A DNA stretch of 63,992 nucleotides, filler included, from Sandaracinaceae bacterium (GTDB taxonomy: Bacteria > Myxococcota_A > Polyangia > Polyangiales > JADJQN01): assembly GCA_947483975.1 (NCBI GenBank). It is 3 parts of 3 records of this genome, joined end to end, with 100 filler letters (N's around TTAATTAATTAA, not from the genome) between each part and the next. Parts side by side here need not be neighbours in the genome. Positions count along the whole stretch, not along the records: positions 27,409 to 54,406 come from CANKOL010000026.1; 2 more parts are not named here. One strand, 5' to 3'. The notes beneath the pieces are model-generated. The model was not told the DNA's origin and did no database searches. It saw nothing but the letters and a program-made list of their open reading frames with translations. This document shows positions 6,526-54,506 of the stretch, one piece after another (positions within the stretch are counted from its first letter, which is position 1; every line of letters starts with the position of its first letter). The position numbers and the translations under genes are program-made.

Positions 6526-7320
6526 TCAGGAGCGCAGCGCCGCGCGGACCGAAGCGTAGCGGCGCTCGTCGGCAGGCTCGAAGCGCTCGGCCGAGAAAAG
6601 CTCGCGCAGCACGGCTCGACCGCGGGGCTCATCCGCGAGCCCGACGAAGGCCTCGAGCACGCGCGCCTGCAACGCGGCGTCGACGGAAGGGCCGACGCAC
6701 AACACGTCACTGGGGATCGGATCGGTCGTCAGCAGCGGTCGCATGGGCACATCGGAGGTGTCGTACCAACCCGCCGAGATGGCGCCGCTGTCGCCCCGCG
6801 TGACGTCCATGTTGAGGAACGTCGCGCCGACGTCGACCTCGCGCGCGACCACGGCGCGCGCGACCTGCGCGTGGCTGCCGCAGAACGTCTCGGAGCCGAA
6901 CAGCGCCACCGGGTCGAGCCCACGCAGCACGAGCGCTTGGCGCGGGAAGAGGTAGCCGCTCGAGGAGTCGCGATCGACCCAGCCGACGCGCAGCCCACGG
7001 AGATCCTCGACGCGGTGCCAGCGGGAGGAGGCGAGCACGTAGAGCGTGCCGTAGAAGAACGCGCCCGGCGCGCGGACGACCTCTGCGAGCATCGTCGCGA
7101 CCTTCGCGTCCGCGGCGCGCACCGCGAGCGCTGGAGGCAGCCACGCGAAGTCGAGCGCGCCCGCATTGAGCCTCGACTCGAGCGTCCCGTAGTCCGCGAA
7201 GGAGACGACGTCGACGTGCACGCCGATGCGGGCGCCGAGCAGCTCCGCGAGATCCGCGCGCCGCTCTGCCGTCGCGCCACGCACGCGAAGTGGACCCGTG
7301 GCTAGGACTGCCTTGTGCAC
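6526..7320 (-). CDS. PhnD-like phosphate/phosphonate substrate-binding-fold protein
   Basis: DFAWLPP, DRDSSSGYLFPR, GSHAQVARAV, TDPIPSD; start approximate. Confidence 0.8.
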   Translation of the reverse strand: MHKAVLATGPLRVRGATAERRADLAELLGARIGVHVDVVSFADYGTLESRLNAGALDFAWLPPALAVRAADAKVATMLAEVVRAPGAFFYGTLYVLASSRWHRVEDLRGLRVGWVDRDSSSGYLFPRQALVLRGLDPVALFGSETFCGSHAQVARAVVAREVDVGATFLNMDVTRGDSGAISAGWYDTSDVPMRPLLTTDPIPSDVLCVGPSVDAALQARVLEAFVGLADEPRGRAVLRELFSAERFEPADERRYASVRAALRS

Positions 7321-7421
7321 GGCGCGTATGCTGGCGAGCGCTGGACGAGACCGCAAGCCGAGCCAGGCGCGAGATTTGTACGCCTGGCTACGGTTCTACC
7401 TGCGGGCCGCGGCCGAGGGTA

Positions 7422-8807
<1,386 letters not shown>

Positions 8808-14388: not shown

Positions 14389-14952
14389 ATGCTTCGACTC
14401 CGCCGCCTCTCTGCGCTCGCGCTGCCCGTCGTCGGTCTGCTGCTCGCGTCCGCTGCGCTGCTCGCCGCGCCCCGCACCGCGCACGCCGCGCCGCCGGATA
14501 TCGCGCGCGTCCGCGAGATGCTGAGCGGCTACGAGGGCGGGCCGCCGGAGAGCGTCTGGCGCGAGCTTGGACCCGAGACGCTGCCTGTCCTGATCGCGCT
14601 CTACGACTCGACGCAGGAGGCGCCGTTCGTGCGGCAGCGCGCGGTCGCAGCGGCGGCGTTCTATCCGTCGCCCGCGACGCGCACGTTCTTGCACGCGGTG
14701 CTCGCGACGCCGGGGCAGCACGAGATCTACCTGCGCACTGCCGTCGACGCGCTCGCCCGCGCGTTCGGCGCCGGCGCCTGGGACGAGGTACGCCCGTACC
14801 TCGCGCACAACCTCGTCACGGTGCGCATGGGCGCGGTCCGCGCGGCCTCGCGGATCAACACCCCCGCCGTGCGCGCTGCGCTCCGCGCGCGCCTCGGCAG
14901 CGAGCAAGAGCCCGAAGTGCGCGACGCGATCACGGCAGCGCTCGCGCGCTGA
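14389..14952 (+). CDS. Secreted HEAT-repeat protein
   Basis: Signal peptide ending AHA; HEAT-like VRQRAVAA / VRMGAVRA / EVRDAI. Confidence 0.75.
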   Translation: MLRLRRLSALALPVVGLLLASAALLAAPRTAHAAPPDIARVREMLSGYEGGPPESVWRELGPETLPVLIALYDSTQEAPFVRQRAVAAAAFYPSPATRTFLHAVLATPGQHEIYLRTAVDALARAFGAGAWDEVRPYLAHNLVTVRMGAVRAASRINTPAVRAALRARLGSEQEPEVRDAITAALAR

Positions 14953-14972
14953 GCCTCGACGCGATGAGCCCG

Positions 14973-15596
14973 CTACGGCGGCACGACGCAGATGCCGCCG
15001 CCGCAGTCTGGCAGACAGCTCCAGGTGCCCGTCGTCGCCTCGCACGCGCAGCCGCTCGAGGCGCAGCCCGCTGTCGCGACGCAGTCTTGACCGATCGGAC
15101 AACCGCGCGCGACGCAGCCGACGGGCGGCGCGCCGGTGCAGGCGTCGTTGACGCAAAGGTTCCCCTGACAGCAGGACGCGTCAGCCGCGCTGCACCAGCA
15201 GAACGCGCCCGGCGCGCACTTCACTCCAGTGCCGCAGTCGGCGTCCGAGGCGCACTCGTTGGGCGGCGCGCACGCGCAGGGCTGACAGCCATTGCGCGTG
15301 TAGAGCGACCAGCCGAACTGACAGAGGATGTCGCAGACGAGCGCGGAGTTGTCGCAGGCGACGCACGCGCCGCCGACGCACCACTCGGTGCCCGACGGGC
15401 AATCGCTGTCGCGCACGCAGGCGTGCCCGCCGTCGCCGAGCGCAGCGTCGACGCCGAGGTCGCCCGCTGCTGCGTCGACCCCGAGATCCGCGAGGGCGGC
15501 GTCAGCGCCGAGGTCGGCAGGCGGCGGTGCGTCGTCGTCGCCGCACGCGCCGAACAGCATCGAGAGCACCACGAGCGCGCGGAGTGAGTTCCCCAT
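14973..15596 (-). CDS. Cys-rich lipoprotein
   Basis: Lipobox FGAC, DLG low-complexity linker, many Cys. Confidence 0.8.
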   Translation of the reverse strand: MGNSLRALVVLSMLFGACGDDDAPPPADLGADAALADLGVDAAAGDLGVDAALGDGGHACVRDSDCPSGTEWCVGGACVACDNSALVCDILCQFGWSLYTRNGCQPCACAPPNECASDADCGTGVKCAPGAFCWCSAADASCCQGNLCVNDACTGAPPVGCVARGCPIGQDCVATAGCASSGCACEATTGTWSCLPDCGGGICVVPP

Positions 15597-27308: not shown

Positions 27309-27408
27309 NNNNNNNNNNNNNNNNNNNNNNNNNNNNNNNNNNNNNNNNNNNNTTAATTAATTAANNNNNNNNNNNNNNNNNNNNNNNNNNNNNNNNNNNN
27401 NNNNNNNN
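27309..27408. other. Artificial contig linker
   Basis: 44 N + TTAATTAATTAA (stops in all six frames) + 44 N. Confidence 0.98.
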
Positions 27409-37278: not shown

Positions 37279-39552
37279 TCAGCGCTCCCTCGTCCGCCGG
37301 AGGCACGCCCCGAGCAGCGCGAGGAGCGCCTCGTGGGTCGGCGGCTCCCGTAGCTCGACCTCGAGCTCGAACGCCGCCTCAGCCTCGCGAACCCGAGTGA
37401 CGGTGGCGCGCTCGTCACGGAGCGCAGCGGCGACCCACGCAGAGGCCGCGCGCGCAGCCGGCGATTGCCTGTCGAGGCGCGCCCGCACCCACGCGGCGAG
37501 GCGCGCGAACGACGAGCCGACGTCCGCATCGACCCGCGCCGACACCGGCGCGGCGGACGCAGCGTAGATCCCGACCGACAGCCCGACGCGGCCCGCGTCC
37601 GGCACCCGCAGCCCGAGCACGACCGCGTGCGGCGAGCGGCTCAGGTGCAGCGTCGTCCCGTCATCGAGAAGCTCCGCCGCGCGCGCGTCGCGGTAGCCGC
37701 CAGCGCCCTCCTGCCGCGCGAGCCGCGCGAGCACCTCGCGCGCGACGGCGCTCTGCTCACGCCGCAGCACCTCGCGCTGCGCGGCGGCCGAGGGCGGCGG
37801 ATACGGCACCGCGCAGCGCGTCGTCACGCCGTTCGAGCGCCCGAGCGCGAGCGTCCCATCGGGGGCGAAGCAGACGACGGCGGCGAGGTCCTCGGCGTCG
37901 AGCGTGACGGGCGGCGCGTCCGAGTGCGGATCGAAGACGCAGACCGGGCTCGCGAAGGCCGCGCAGGCGAGGTGCCCGTCGGCGTCGAACGCGAGGCACT
38001 CCACGAGCGCGAGGTCGTAGGCGCGGCGCTGCGTCCCGCTCGCGAGGTCGTGCACGAGGACCTGCCCATCGAGCCGATACGCGAGCCAAGGCGCGTGCTG
38101 CGCGAAGGCGAGCGCACCACAGCACGTCGCCTTCGCGGCGAAGACCTCGCGCCCGGTCGCGACCTCGTGCACGACGACGCGGTCACGCCCGCCGAGCGAC
38201 GCGAGCAGCACGCCGTCGCGCGACCACGCGAGCGCGCCCGCCCAGAAGTGCCCCGGCTCCTTGGAGGGCGCCGTCAACTCCTGCAGCGCCTCGCCGGTCA
38301 GCGGATCGCGCAGCACCACCGACCCGGCGCGGCAGAGCGTCGCGAGCCAGGCGCCCGCTGGGTCGAAGGCGACAGCGGCGAGGTCGCGGCCGTCGTGCGC
38401 GTTCGGGACCGCGCTCCGACGCTCGCCCGTGCCGACGTCGAAGAGGCGCAGCGTGCCGTCCATGCCGCCGCTCGCGAGCAGCGCGTCGTCGACTGAGAGC
38501 GAGAGCGAGGCGACGTAATTGGCGTGGCCGGGGATGGCCCGGAGGTGCTCGCCGGACTCGCTCGCCCAGAGGTTCACCGTCTTGTCGTGGCCGCCCGCCG
38601 TGGCGAGCAGCGCGCCAGCCGAGCTGAAGGCGAGCGACGACACGCCCGAGCCGTGCCCGGGCGGCGTCGGGAGCGGCGACTCGCCTCCCGGCTCGAGGAC
38701 GCGCGCGTGCCGATACGCCGCGGCGACGAGCCCCCCACCCGGCCTCGCGGCGACCGACGCGCGGCCACCGCGGGGCGAGACCTCGTCAGCGCGAAGCGCT
38801 CCGGTCCGCACGTCGACGAGCGCCACTGGCCCGCTCAACGAGTGCCGCACCCAGAGCTCTGCGCCGTCCGCCATGAAGCCGAACGACTCCAGCTCGAACG
38901 GCAGCCGGAGCACGCGCGCGGGCTCGTCGCCGACGAAGCACGAGAGCGCATCGGAGCCCGCCGCCGCGACCACGAGCAGGTCCTCACGCGGCGAGAACGC
39001 GACCTCCACGCGGCGCCCCGCGCGCTGCGGCTGCGCACGGCGCACCTCGCCGCCGCTCCGCGCGTCGACCACGACCGCGTGCGCGCTGCCGCCGACGGCG
39101 AGCCACCGCGAGTCGCGCGAGAACGAGAGCCCGACGAGGTGCGCGACGTCGTGCCCCACCGCGCCTAGCTCCCGCCGGCTCTCCACGTCGAAGAGCACGA
39201 CCTCCCACGCGTCGAACTTCGCGCGCCCCGCGGCGAGCGTGCGCCCGTCGGGGGACAGCGCGACGGGCGAACTGAGGTCGGCGCTCGGAAGGGCTTGCGT
39301 CACCTCCGGCGCGCCGACGGTCCACGAGAACACTCGCCCGTACGCGAGCCAGAGCGTCCCGCCATCCCGCGAGAACGCGAGGCTGTGCGCGGCTTGCCGC
39401 ACCCGCGCGACGAGCCGCCCCTCGGGGAGCGTCCAGACCGCTGTCTCCACATTCGACCCGAGCGCGACGAGGCGCCCGTCCGGCGACACCTCCACGGCGT
39501 CGATGTCCGCGTGGAGCCGGAGCCGGTCATCTCCGTATTGCAGCGCGCGCAC
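37279..39552 (-). CDS. WD40-repeat protein
   Basis: GHGSGVSSLAFS, GHANYVASLSLS..GTLRLFD and SPDG repeats; GTG 39552 chosen from the TACGCT box. Confidence 0.85.
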   Translation of the reverse strand: MRALQYGDDRLRLHADIDAVEVSPDGRLVALGSNVETAVWTLPEGRLVARVRQAAHSLAFSRDGGTLWLAYGRVFSWTVGAPEVTQALPSADLSSPVALSPDGRTLAAGRAKFDAWEVVLFDVESRRELGAVGHDVAHLVGLSFSRDSRWLAVGGSAHAVVVDARSGGEVRRAQPQRAGRRVEVAFSPREDLLVVAAAGSDALSCFVGDEPARVLRLPFELESFGFMADGAELWVRHSLSGPVALVDVRTGALRADEVSPRGGRASVAARPGGGLVAAAYRHARVLEPGGESPLPTPPGHGSGVSSLAFSSAGALLATAGGHDKTVNLWASESGEHLRAIPGHANYVASLSLSVDDALLASGGMDGTLRLFDVGTGERRSAVPNAHDGRDLAAVAFDPAGAWLATLCRAGSVVLRDPLTGEALQELTAPSKEPGHFWAGALAWSRDGVLLASLGGRDRVVVHEVATGREVFAAKATCCGALAFAQHAPWLAYRLDGQVLVHDLASGTQRRAYDLALVECLAFDADGHLACAAFASPVCVFDPHSDAPPVTLDAEDLAAVVCFAPDGTLALGRSNGVTTRCAVPYPPPSAAAQREVLRREQSAVAREVLARLARQEGAGGYRDARAAELLDDGTTLHLSRSPHAVVLGLRVPDAGRVGLSVGIYAASAAPVSARVDADVGSSFARLAAWVRARLDRQSPAARAASAWVAAALRDERATVTRVREAEAAFELEVELREPPTHEALLALLGACLRRTRER

Positions 39553-39698
39553 GGGGGGAGCGTACGCCACGCGCGCGAGGGCGTCATTGGCCGAGGCGAG
39601 GTCCGCGCGGTCGGGCGATGTGTGAGTTTTTTTTCTGCGGCGTGAATGGCGCGCTTCCGGCTGCGTCAAAACGAGAGAGAGCGCCGCCCCACGGAGCG

Positions 39699-39814
39699 CT
39701 TTTCATCAAGACGGGTGGAGGGACAGGCCCTGCGAAACCCGACCAACCGACCGCGAAGCGGCACGGTGGCAAAGCCTGAAAACGAGGTCCACCGACCTCG
39801 TCCACGATGGAAGG
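39699..39814 (+). ncRNA. SAM-I (S-box) riboswitch, translational type
   Basis: P1 CTTTTCATC/GATGGAAGG; J1/2 AAGA; P2 CGGGT/ACCCG with GGAG/CGAA kink-turn and GGGACAGGCCC; P3 CCAACC..GGTGG; L2 CAGG pairs with J3/4 CCTG; P4 ACGAGGTC/GACCTCGT. Confidence 0.88.
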
Positions 39815-39822
39815 AGGCACTC

Positions 39823-40482
39823 ATGGCGACAGACGAAGATTGCGAATCCGATGATGTGTTGGTGACGTGTGGCCGCCGTTGGCGGGCCGACGGAATCCCG
39901 GTCAACTCCTATCGATGCGGCTGGAACCGCATCCGAGCGCGCGTCGCCGCCGGAGACGTGCGACTCACACGCAATCTCGGGAGAGTCGGCACCGGGATCA
40001 GCGTGTCACTCGACGAGCTCGAACCGCTGATCACCCTCCTGCGCTGGTACGGGACGCAGCGCCTGAGCTGGTCAGCGTTCTATTGGTCGGGGCATGGCCA
40101 CGTGCCCGGCTGGGGCTGCGCTGGGGCGTACTACCAGCCCCCCGGCGACGCGCGACAGGTCGAGGTCGCCTCGAAGGCGTACGGCAAGCTACGGGGGGAG
40201 GACTTCACCGGAGAAGACGTGCGCATCCGCGTGGACCCGCCCGAGCGCGTCGCCGACGTGGCCGACCTCGTCGCGCGGATCGTGCGGAAGGGCGAGCGAT
40301 TCGGCAATCGCGCGGGCGAACAGGTCGGGGCCGTCTATCACCTCGGCACGCTGGTCATCGACGCCAAACGCATGGAGCTCGTTCTCCAGCGCGGGAAGGA
40401 GTGGATCTCGCTCGAGGATGGCGAGGACTTGTTCCTCGAGCGTCTGCTCTCCATCGAGCGGGCCCTCGCCTCCTCGCGCTGA
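39823..40482 (+). CDS. Hypothetical protein (219 aa) downstream of SAM riboswitch
   Basis: AAGGAGG RBS at 39811-39817, ATG 39823; no motif recognised. Confidence 0.75.
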   Translation: MATDEDCESDDVLVTCGRRWRADGIPVNSYRCGWNRIRARVAAGDVRLTRNLGRVGTGISVSLDELEPLITLLRWYGTQRLSWSAFYWSGHGHVPGWGCAGAYYQPPGDARQVEVASKAYGKLRGEDFTGEDVRIRVDPPERVADVADLVARIVRKGERFGNRAGEQVGAVYHLGTLVIDAKRMELVLQRGKEWISLEDGEDLFLERLLSIERALASSR

Positions 40483-40595: not shown

Positions 40596-42116
40596 TCAGA
40601 AGAAGCCGAGCTTGCTCTCGCTGTAGCTGACCAGCAGGTTCTTGGTCTGTTGGTAGTGATCCAACATCACCTTGTGCGTCTCGCGCCCGATGCCCGACTC
40701 CTTGTAACCACCGAACGCCGCGTGCGCGGGATAGGCGTGATAGCAGTTCGTCCAGACGCGCCCGGCCTTGATCGCGCGGCCCATGCGATAGGCCACGTTG
40801 CCATTGCGACTCCACACTCCGGCGCCTAGCCCATAGGCGGTGTCGTTGGCGATGGACAAGGCCTCTGCCTCGTCCTTGAAGGTCGTGACCGCGAGCACGG
40901 GGCCGAAGATCTCCTCTTGGAAGATCCGCATCTTGTTGTGGCCCTTGAACAGCGTGGGCTGGACGTAATAGCCACCTCCGAGCTCACCCTCGAGCTGCGC
41001 CTGTTCGCCGCCGATCAGCACCTCGGCGCCCTCCGCCTTACCAATCTCGAGATAGGAGAGGATCTTGGCGAGCTGCTCCTTCGACGCCTGCGCGCCCATC
41101 ATCGTGTCGGTGTCGAGCGGAGAGCCGTGCTTGATGGCCGCGACTCGCGCGAGGACGCGCTCCATGAAGCGCTCGTAGATGCTCTCTTGGATCAGGGCGC
41201 GCGACGGGCAGGTGCAGACTTCGCCCTGGTTGAAGGCGAACAGCACCAAGCCCTCGATCGCCTTGTCGAGGTAGCCGTCGTCCTGGTCCATCACATCCGC
41301 GAAGAAGATGTTGGGCGACTTGCCGCCTAGCTCCAGCGTCGCGGGGATCAGGTTGGTGGCGGCCGCCTGCGCGATCACGCGCCCCGTCGCCGTCGAGCCG
41401 GTGAACGCGATCTTGGCGATGCGCTTGCTGGTAGCGAGCGGCAGGCCGGCCTCACGCCCGTAGCCATTGACGATGTTGAGGACTCCGGGCGGCAGCAGAT
41501 CGGCGATCAGCTCCGCGACGATCAGGATGCTGATCGGCGTGGACTCCGCCGGCTTGAGCACCACGCAGTTGCCCGCGGCGAGCGCCGGGGCGAGCTTCCA
41601 CGCGGCCATCAGGATCGGGAAATTCCAGGGGATGATCTGCCCGACGACGCCGAGCGGCTCGTGCAGGTGATACGCGACGGTGGTCTCGTCGAGCTGGCTG
41701 AGGGCGCCCTCTTGGGCGCGCACGCAGCCCGCAAAATAGCGGAAGTGATCGATCGTCAGCGGGATGTCGGCGTTGAGCGTCTCGCGGATCGGCTTGCCGT
41801 TGTCCACCGTCTCGGCGTAGGCGAGCAGCTCGAGGTTGGCCTCGAGGCGATCGGCGATCTTGAGCAGGGCGTTGGAGCGGTCCGTCGGGGAGGTCTTGCC
41901 CCACGCATCGGCGGCCGCGTGCGCCGCGTCGAGCGCGAGCTCGATATCCGCCGCCGTCGAGCGCGCGGCCTGCGTGTAGACCTTGCCGCTCACCGGCGTG
42001 ATCACGTCGAAGTACTGCCCGTCGACCGGCGCGACGAACTTGCCGCCGATGAAATTGTCGTAGCGGGGCTTGTAGGTGAGCTTGGCTCCTGCGGAGCCTG
42101 GGGCGGCGTAAATCAT
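40596..42116 (-). CDS. aldB: NAD-dependent aldehyde dehydrogenase (AldB/ExaC/AcoD type)
   Basis: [37 protein letters not shown]. Confidence 0.95.
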
Positions 42117-42194
42117 CTGTGTCTCCCGAGCGGTGATGAGGGGTGTGGAGGGCGCGCCCCGAGGGTCACGCCAACCGTTCGCGCGGCGTGCTTG

Positions 42195-42210
42195 AGCACG
42201 GTGTGTGCCA
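42195..42210 (-). promoter_or_regulatory. sigma54 promoter of aldB
   Basis: Minus strand TGGCACACACCGTGCT (GG-N10-GC); divergent activator; TGTC-N11-GACA at 42287-42305 is a candidate UAS. Confidence 0.75.
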
Positions 42211-42444
42211 GTCCGTCGAATGAGCCGTGAATGGCGCCGGCGCGGTCGAAACCCACCCTGCGCGTCCGTCCGGGGCATACGCGCGCTGTCTCGCGCCACA
42301 GGACAGGCTGTGTCGAAACGGAACAACCTCCGCCCCAATCCGGGTCAAATCGGCCTGGGCGCTGTGGCACAATCCCCGATGCGCGGGCCCGCGGCGAGAG
42401 AGGCTGCGCGCGCGCTGCACACCCGATCGAGGAGACGAGCGACG

Positions 42445-44406
<1,962 letters not shown>

Positions 44407-54406: not shown

Positions 54407-54506
54407 NNNNNNNNNNNNNNNNNNNNNNNNNNNNNNNNNNNNNNNNNNNNTTAATTAATTAANNNNNNNNNNNNNNNNNNNNNNNNNNNNNNNNNNNNNN
54501 NNNNNN
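54407..54506. other. Artificial contig linker
   Basis: 44 N + TTAATTAATTAA + 44 N. Confidence 0.98.

Follow-up and report, generated by a model that had tools for sequence, protein, structure and literature searches.

A SAM-I aptamer abutting the start codon of an unnamed protein family in Myxococcota and its probable role as a translational OFF switch

The window analysed here, a stretch of 63,992 nucleotides (nt) from the draft genome of a Sandaracinaceae bacterium (phylum Myxococcota; assembly GCA_947483975.1), carries an S-adenosylmethionine (SAM) riboswitch aptamer of the SAM-I (S-box) class directly before the gene for P0001, a protein of 219 amino acids (aa). As an RNA, the aptamer is unremarkable within a well-known class and adds little by itself; the unusual part is its cargo, an unnamed and sporadically distributed protein family that carries the switch at every locus examined. 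We consider it likely that the aptamer is functional and that, in a leader serving this single gene, it acts as a translational OFF switch at high SAM. Loci and genomes other than the window's own are cited below by our working labels (L and G numbers, respectively) where they have to be told apart.

The aptamer and the gene behind it

Across the whole window Rfam gives a single match, to RF00162 (SAM-I), at positions 39700–39813 of the plus strand; it scores 61.8 bits where the cut-off is 44.4 (E 6.6e-12) and spans model positions 1–108. An earlier note, made by reading this DNA by eye, had described a complete SAM-I riboswitch with an L2–J3/4 pseudoknot; the covariance model bears this out by 17 bits over the cut-off, every helix that the note listed is found at the positions collected in Table 1, and helices P1 to P3 as well as the pseudoknot are supported by covariation in relatives, as set out in the next section. 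In this class SAM is contacted by the AGA of J1/2, by tandem A-U and U-A pairs in P1, and by the CAAC/GGUG core of P3 with its bulged A, and in the cmscan alignment the pocket nucleotides of the window copy all agree with the RF00162 consensus. The window copy departs from the consensus in P3, where the outermost pair is an A/C mismatch and the base of the helix has C-G in place of G-C.

Table 1. Features of the leader and its gene, with positions counted along the window
Feature	Position	Strand	Sequence or remarks
SAM-I (S-box) aptamer	39699–39814	+	P1–P4, kink-turn region and L2–J3/4 pseudoknot; from RF00162 and the sequence
P1	39699–39707 with 39806–39814	+	CTTTTCATC with GATGGAAGG; 9 pairs, 2 of them G-U; direct reading
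J1/2	39708–39711	+	AAGA
P2a	39712–39716 with 39737–39741	+	
P2b	39720–39722 with 39728–39730	+	
Pseudoknot	39724–39727 with 39775–39778	+	L2 CAGG with J3/4 CCTG
P3	39743–39769	+	A39742/C39770 unpaired
P4	39782–39789 with 39794–39801 (hairpin 39782–39801)	+	ACGAGGTC with GACCTCGT; 8 pairs; direct reading
Ribosome-binding site (RBS)	39811–39817	+	AAGGAGG; overlaps the 3′ strand of P1 (39806–39814), as in related leaders
Start codon	39823–39825	+	ATG, 5 nt after the RBS
Regulated gene	39823–40482	+	219-aa protein P0001, first described member of an uncharacterised family; from translation
Candidate upstream hairpin	39677–39703 (39677–39684 with 39696–39703)	+	GAGAGCGC, 11-nt loop, GCGCUUUU; 8 pairs, 2 of them G-U; would take 5 nt of the P1 5′ strand

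The P0001 gene looks real, since its GC content at third codon positions (GC3, 0.84) fits that of the neighbouring genes (0.81–0.94) and a profile search finds 126 representative relatives. The next gene, encoding an aldehyde dehydrogenase (40596–42338), lies on the opposite strand and is convergent, so that the switch controls the P0001 gene only. The P0001 frame stays open upstream across the whole aptamer as far as an ATG at 39646, giving an open reading frame (ORF) of 278 aa (39646–40482, plus strand); a gene caller choosing that ATG would bury the riboswitch in coding sequence, and public protein sets hold the 219-aa form.

Coupling to the family and conservation of the RNA structure

Family loci were taken as matches to the protein profile alone at E ≤ 1e-10, which yielded 12. 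Among 401 genomes of the order, full-length members occur in G000 (the genome of the window), G013, G037, G066, G122 and G343, the last of which also has a truncated second copy; a sample of 401 genomes of the phylum gave members in G149, G462, G474 and G521, and a protein alignment search of metagenome contigs gave L077 only. An RF00162 match lies directly upstream of the family gene in all 12 loci. Eleven of these aptamers score 50.2–63.1 bits, above the Rfam cut-off, and that of L077 scores 39.4 bits, below the cut-off, at E 1.2e-6. One of the 12 loci (L010) comes from an unpublished genome, G122. Two loci with faint, partial similarity to the protein (L011 and L012, E about 1e-4 to 1e-3), neither of which has an aptamer at E ≤ 0.1, were not counted as members. 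Because the proteins of three family loci are only 25–32% identical to P0001, the coupling of switch and gene must be old or strongly maintained. Three further members, namely L042 (E 1.4e-68), L037 (from a metagenome-assembled genome, MAG, of Planctomycetota; E 1.1e-20, ending at 172 aa) and L058 (E 1.9e-8), were found through the riboswitch and thus form a biased sample that stands outside the count of 12. So strict a coupling suggests that the cell needs the family only under SAM scarcity. It labels an unnamed, domain-less family with a possible nucleic-acid-binding fold, and provides a handle for finding the function of that family.

Two copies of the module lie within 8 kb of each other in G343 (L022, contig C21), at about 7300–7950 on the plus strand and 14695–15096 on the minus strand, near a phage-type integrase gene (L022 3179–4675). 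One of the two genes is full-length and the other is truncated to 133 aa, and each has its own aptamer (56.3 and 62.2 bits).

The structure of the RNA was examined in an alignment (A5) of 12 related aptamers, the relatives of the window copy from other genomes. RNAalifold recovered the P1 core, P2a, P2b and P3, with compensatory changes in 8 of 22 pairs. When the pseudoknot had been added by hand to this structure (26 pairs, 312 cells), standard pairs filled 97.8% of the cells and 10 of the 26 pairs showed changes on both sides. The covariation score was 0.252 versus 0.100 in shuffled alignments, and none of 500 shuffles reached it; these shuffle figures overstate independence because the A5 sequences are related to one another, a weakness from which a control with the 3′ partners slid by 1–3 columns is free, and in that control pairing fell to 27–46%. 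Pseudoknot pair 28/84 covaries, being C-G in 7 of the 12 rows and A-U in 4, and the A-U and U-A pairs of P1 beside J1/2 (6/115 and 7/114) are each invariant in all 12.

At the base of P3, the C-G pair (column 46 with 76) is likewise present in every row of A5. The earlier note had taken this swap for a compensatory change that argues for selection on structure; the change is indeed a genuine compensatory one, but it is not peculiar to the locus. A pattern search for the P3 variant in 185,579 species genomes found 25 loci; at 8 of these, in Planctomycetota and other MAGs, the gene that follows is a metH-like homocysteine S-methyltransferase gene.

P4 varies among the copies: it has the 8 pairs of the window copy, or 5–6 pairs, or is absent from the junction altogether (L008, L009, L015–L017 and L004), with the rest of the aptamer retained. 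The SAM-IV (RF00634) and SAM-I/IV (RF01725) riboswitches, which belong with RF00162 to Rfam clan CL00012, share a SAM-I-like binding core, and several relatives of the window element are like them in having no P4 in the junction. However, RF00162 wins the clan competition for the window copy and its relatives, the P4 of the window copy has its full 8 pairs, and no replacement hairpin follows P1 in the relatives without P4, since the start codon comes at once. The identity of the aptamer, its helices, their covariation, the layout of the leader and the conserved pairing of switch and gene are all established computationally.

Control at the ribosome-binding site

With only 8 nt between the last base of P1 and the ATG, there is no room for a terminator or for a separate sequestering hairpin. 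No terminator-like site was found on the plus strand from 39300 to 40300. The P1 3′ strand of the family leaders, as aligned to Rfam, reads GAUGGAGG, GAUGAGGA or GAUGAGGG, which is the RBS itself. A purine-rich RBS begins 0–4 nt past the GAUG/CAUG core in 11 of the 12 leaders, with the ATG 12–19 nt from the core; in the leader of L018 the ATG lies 8 nt from the core without a purine run, and in the metagenome member L077 it lies inside the P1 3′ strand. The case for control at translation initiation rests mainly on this conserved arrangement of P1, RBS and ATG. Both the overlap of P1 with the Shine-Dalgarno sequence and the lack of an intrinsic terminator after the aptamer had been pointed out in the earlier note, and both were found here, the overlap being kept in relatives.

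We infer that the aptamer binds SAM, that binding turns the gene off, and that it does so at translation initiation. SAM binding would stabilise the four-way junction together with the P1 helix, whose 3′ strand, GAUGGAAGG, would then hold the first four bases of the AAGGAGG site, while the remaining RBS bases and the AUG would lie at most 17 nt from the folded aptamer. Because P1 would hold part of the RBS, and because the rest of the RBS and the AUG would abut the folded RNA, the 30S subunit would be kept from loading at high SAM and translation would be OFF. At low SAM, P1 would open and the gene would be translated. The aptamer would do this on its own, as no separate expression platform, such as a terminator, is present or would fit.

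Classical SAM-I riboswitches (RF00162), such as those of the Bacillus subtilis met and cys leaders, use an intrinsic terminator and control genes for sulphur, methionine or SAM metabolism. The window element shares with them the four-way junction, the kink-turn region, the pseudoknot and the pocket nucleotides, and differs from them in having no terminator, in placing the RBS in P1, and in having an unnamed protein family as its cargo. A SAM-I riboswitch acting on translation is not new. An element of Xanthomonas campestris, SAM-I Xcc, is reported to act chiefly on translation; it controls the met operon and reportedly also senses uncharged initiator tRNA (PMC7270179). SAM-I Xcc and the window copy are alike in joining a SAM-I aptamer to translational action, which is probable for the window copy, and differ in that the window cargo is not a met gene and in that no separate anti-Shine-Dalgarno platform exists in the window copy, because the ATG follows P1 directly.

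Several observations weigh against a translational OFF switch built in this way. P1 covers only four of the seven RBS bases, and several relatives show one or two non-standard pairs in its outer half. When the P1 core was forced in a secondary-structure model, the probability that the RBS is unpaired went down in 8 of 12 leaders, up in 3, and remained unchanged in 1. No sigma-70-like promoter was found in 39300–40300, and the contigs from RNA libraries that match the locus may stem from contaminating DNA. Since the modelling of accessibility gave this mixed result, occlusion of the RBS would rest partly on tertiary compaction that lies outside the model, and a compact junction with its ligand, placed right next to the site, probably contributes. 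The metatranscriptome contigs in question are X20 (152 nt, 0 mismatches, 39752–39901), which joins the 3′ half of the aptamer, the RBS and the start of the ORF, and X19, from a different study (205 nt, 1 mismatch, 39849–40053). They hint weakly that leader and gene lie on one RNA, the hint being a weak one because DNA carry-over is possible in RNA libraries. The two libraries gave no contig across 39300–39751 or 40100–40600 and are uninformative on the ends of the transcript.

A run of eight T residues (39627–39634) stands about 65 nt upstream of the aptamer in a region that is otherwise 72% GC, and may mark a promoter region shared by two divergently transcribed genes.

The earlier note had combined the translational OFF switch with a competing upstream helix, GAGAGCGC paired with GCGCTTTT, as an anti-aptamer. 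Such a helix, with its 11-nt loop, would hold the P1 5′ strand at low SAM and thereby make the ON state sharper. We regard this addition as doubtful. The 8-pair helix does appear in the predicted minimum-energy fold of the leader (39660–39840), and in the ligand-free ensemble of the window copy 6.6 of the 9 bases of the P1 5′ strand are paired upstream, as are 4.0–6.8 of the 9 in L008, L007 and L018. However, such pairing is absent from the other 8 of the 12 leaders, and neither the sequence of the helix nor its position is common to the related leaders. Moreover, in a test that omitted the GCG directly before P1, the duplex energy of the P1 5′ strand (9 nt) with the 50 nt upstream was matched or beaten by 10–92% of shuffles in all 12 leaders, and hence never fell within the best 10%. 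If the divergent upstream ORF is read at its longest, only about 30 nt lie between it and the aptamer. The upstream helix is thus possible for the window copy, but it is not a conserved part of the device. Of the mechanism first proposed, the translational OFF switch without a terminator is well supported by the layout, the covariance score and the covariation, and the anti-aptamer as a conserved part is not.

Some other translational riboswitches bring about Rho-dependent termination, or decay of the untranslated mRNA, and the switch might in the same way act mainly on transcription or RNA stability. Such an effect would be compatible with translational control as a secondary consequence; as the main mode of action we judge it improbable, for there is neither an intrinsic terminator nor room for one, and the feature that relatives conserve is the overlap of P1 with the RBS. 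The aptamer might instead be a decayed, non-functional relic beside an unrelated gene, a view that draws on the lack of any visible link between the P0001 gene and sulphur or methyl metabolism and on the A/C mismatch at the outer end of P3. That view is very hard to reconcile with a score so far above the cut-off, with ligand-pocket positions that all match the consensus, with the presence of compensatory changes, or with a pairing of switch and gene that is kept at 12 of 12 loci while the proteins diverge to 25–32% identity, and we give it scarcely any credence. A functional aptamer acting as a translational OFF switch remains the reading that we favour.

The P0001 family and SAM-I cargo in Myxococcota

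P0001 has no match in Pfam, NCBIfam, PADLOC or PHROGs, and the names listed for members of its cluster all read 'hypothetical protein'. A word-indexed search of 5.8 billion proteins found 2 relatives. When 1.84 billion representatives were searched with a profile, 126 came up at E ≤ 0.001; 89 of them reach E ≤ 1e-10, and nearly all of the 126 are about 210–245 aa long. Used alone against genome contigs, P0001 found no relative; the protein atlas held no usable match, and a sequence-profile comparison with the PDB gave nanobody noise only. In an alignment of 82 family members (A2), residues R50, W76, G108, G169 and R183 are near-invariant, and acidic, histidine or cysteine residues are not conserved in any set that would point to an enzyme. 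No informative fused domain was found in the longer family members, and the 82 sequences gave one chance-level match each to Pfam, PADLOC and PHROGs. P0001 is a soluble protein, about 220 aa in length, and its family is unnamed. A viral origin was considered and rejected: the riboswitch pattern had 0 matches in viral contigs, Foldseek found no viral model at E ≤ 0.001, and 1 of the 82 members had a weak PHROG match.

The AlphaFold2 model of P0001, built from the 82-sequence alignment (predicted local distance difference test, pLDDT, 94.6; predicted template-modelling score, pTM, 0.90), comprises a five-stranded sheet with a helix (residues 13–82) followed by a larger sheet region with a helix (85–218), that is, two β-sheet lobes each ending in a long helix, the second with about ten strands. 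The top match in an exhaustive VIA search was Drosophila Pur-alpha (3k44_A, Z 8.1, root-mean-square deviation 3.7 Å, 122 of 145 residues), followed by cyanobacterial proteins of uncharacterised function (2it9_A, Z 7.0; 2nvn_A, Z 5.4); 2gia, 3cm1 and 1l3a (MRP1/2, SsgA-like and PBF-2), which we take to be Whirly-class entries, were found at Z 3.2–3.6. The predicted fold is like those of the Pur-alpha and Whirly binders in having β-sheet lobes that are each closed by a long helix. It differs from them in that P0001 has no similarity at the sequence level and in that its second lobe is built of about ten strands where they have four. The likeness is further weakened by the searches themselves. 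A Z of 7–8 is typical of models without a true match, and the top Z of 8.1 falls in that range; Foldseek found nothing in the PDB at E ≤ 0.001, returning only weak polo-box and Pur-alpha rows at TM scores of 0.15–0.3; and no PUR or Whirly model of Pfam matches P0001 or the 82 members. A PUR/Whirly-like fold is therefore a lead and not a finding, and with so borderline a Z, no significant Foldseek match and no Pfam support, we suggest only weakly that P0001 binds nucleic acid and is needed only at low SAM.

The distribution of the family is sporadic (8 of the 401 order genomes and 6 of the 401 phylum genomes, the window's own being included in each figure), and its neighbours are not conserved across loci. 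In the window the neighbour is a WD40 protein encoded on the opposite strand and transcribed away from the P0001 gene. In G474 and G521, VWA and MerR genes lie upstream on the same strand. At the G013 locus the family gene is directly followed, on its own strand, by two GmrSD/HEC-05-like genes, and a PDC-S28 helicase and a MoxR-VWA pair transcribed oppositely are also present. G343 has an integrase, kinases and the second family copy within 8 kb, and the surroundings in G037 and G066 consist mostly of unnamed genes but include a glutathione S-transferase (GST), a phosphoribosyltransferase-type protein and an AI-2E-type transporter. A defence island was considered as a general setting and set aside, since convincing PADLOC neighbours were confined to G013 (PDC-S28 and HEC-05) and one PDC-S01-like gene in G149; PADLOC gave no matches around the window copy, and its kinase matches are uninformative because the phylum is kinase-rich. 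In G013 itself (L021, contig C2, 4992–9141, minus strand), the aptamer and family gene are followed after a gap of about 40 nt by the two GmrSD_N/HEC-05-like genes, an arrangement that may be an operon putting type IV restriction-like genes under the same leader.

The window aptamer is the sole RF00162 match in its genome, a 5.29-Mb draft in 524 contigs that is 81% complete; the metK gene of this genome lies on another contig and has no RF00162 match. The riboswitch itself maps to contig C26 of G000. The window has 176 N, the first at 27309 and the last at 54506, which along with the mapping to contigs suggests that it joins more than one contig of a draft MAG. No SAM-IV, SAM-I/IV or SAM-II element was found in this 81%-complete draft, a result that is uninformative in that the controls were also silent for SAM-I/IV and SAM-II. 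An RF00162 match was found in 4 of 41 genomes of the order, in three cases before a member of the P0001 family and in the fourth (L004, 41.4 bits) before an unrelated 180-aa protein. In a 151-genome sample of the phylum, 23 genomes gave 25 matches, and the genes behind these were assigned by our own ORF calls and Pfam scans. Five precede classical genes (two Cys/Met pyridoxal-phosphate (PLP) enzymes, an alpha/beta hydrolase that is possibly of metX type, a homoserine dehydrogenase and metK), five precede the P0001 family, one precedes an AAA_5/MoxR-like ATPase, and 12 stand before genes for small proteins that have no confident Pfam match; the remaining two, one at 29 bits and one cut by a contig end, were not assignable. 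Thus 18 of the 25 stand before genes without a recognisable link to sulphur or methyl metabolism. Most SAM-I switches of Myxococcota therefore appear to sit on orphan or accessory genes and not on methionine genes, which, together with the ATPase genes described below, points to a SAM-I regulon that reaches further outside Firmicutes than has been described. A full-text search of openly accessible articles returned no paper on SAM-I riboswitches in Myxococcota or myxobacteria.

Among the small proteins, those of L056, L062 and L063 (about 200 aa) are related to one another, as are those of L066 and L067 (128 aa); other small cargo is found at L040 and L043/L004 (143–182 aa) and at L070 (259 aa, with a weak HTH_31 match). 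The small orphan proteins make up at least three families that are unrelated to P0001 by BLAST or HMM, and their leaders also have the overlap of P1 with the RBS. Aptamers upstream of ATPase genes were found at L059 (1501–1613, minus strand, 66.5 bits), L034 (964–1077, minus strand, 71.4 bits) and L035 (968–1078, minus strand, 63.5 bits). The AAA_5/bpMoxR-like ATPase of L059, from a genome of the order Polyangiales, is 75% identical to that of L034 in a Verrucomicrobiales MAG and 52% identical to that of L035 in a Holophagales MAG, and identities of this order across three phyla suggest that switch and ATPase gene were transferred together. A paper on MoxR-vWA conflict systems (PMC7159879) gave no match to the word 'riboswitch' in the literature search.

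These distributions allow a broader and more speculative interpretation, which we consider unlikely as a whole: the riboswitch and the PUR-like protein would form a stand-alone module that raises an alarm at low SAM, apart from methionine synthesis, within a wider, undescribed set of accessory genes of Myxococcota, and by transfer of other phyla, that is switched on when SAM collapses. The set would include MoxR-like AAA+ ATPases, small orphan proteins and a helix-turn-helix (HTH) protein. In its favour are the sporadic occurrence of the family, its unconserved neighbours, the GmrSD/HEC-05 and PDC-S28 genes of G013, the double copy near an integrase in G343, and the share of the phylum-sample SAM-I matches that precede genes without a sulphur or methyl link. 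Such a module might conceivably answer the destruction of SAM by phage SAM lyases, or protect under-methylated DNA or RNA. Among the titles and opening lines of abstracts retrieved, none ties SAM lyase or phage depletion of SAM to riboswitches.

Beyond the P0001 gene, the aldehyde dehydrogenase gene on the minus strand adjoins a plus-strand gene for a GAF-PAS sigma-54 activator (together 40596–44406), and this pair resembles the AcoR-type regulated loci for aldehyde or acetoin utilisation.

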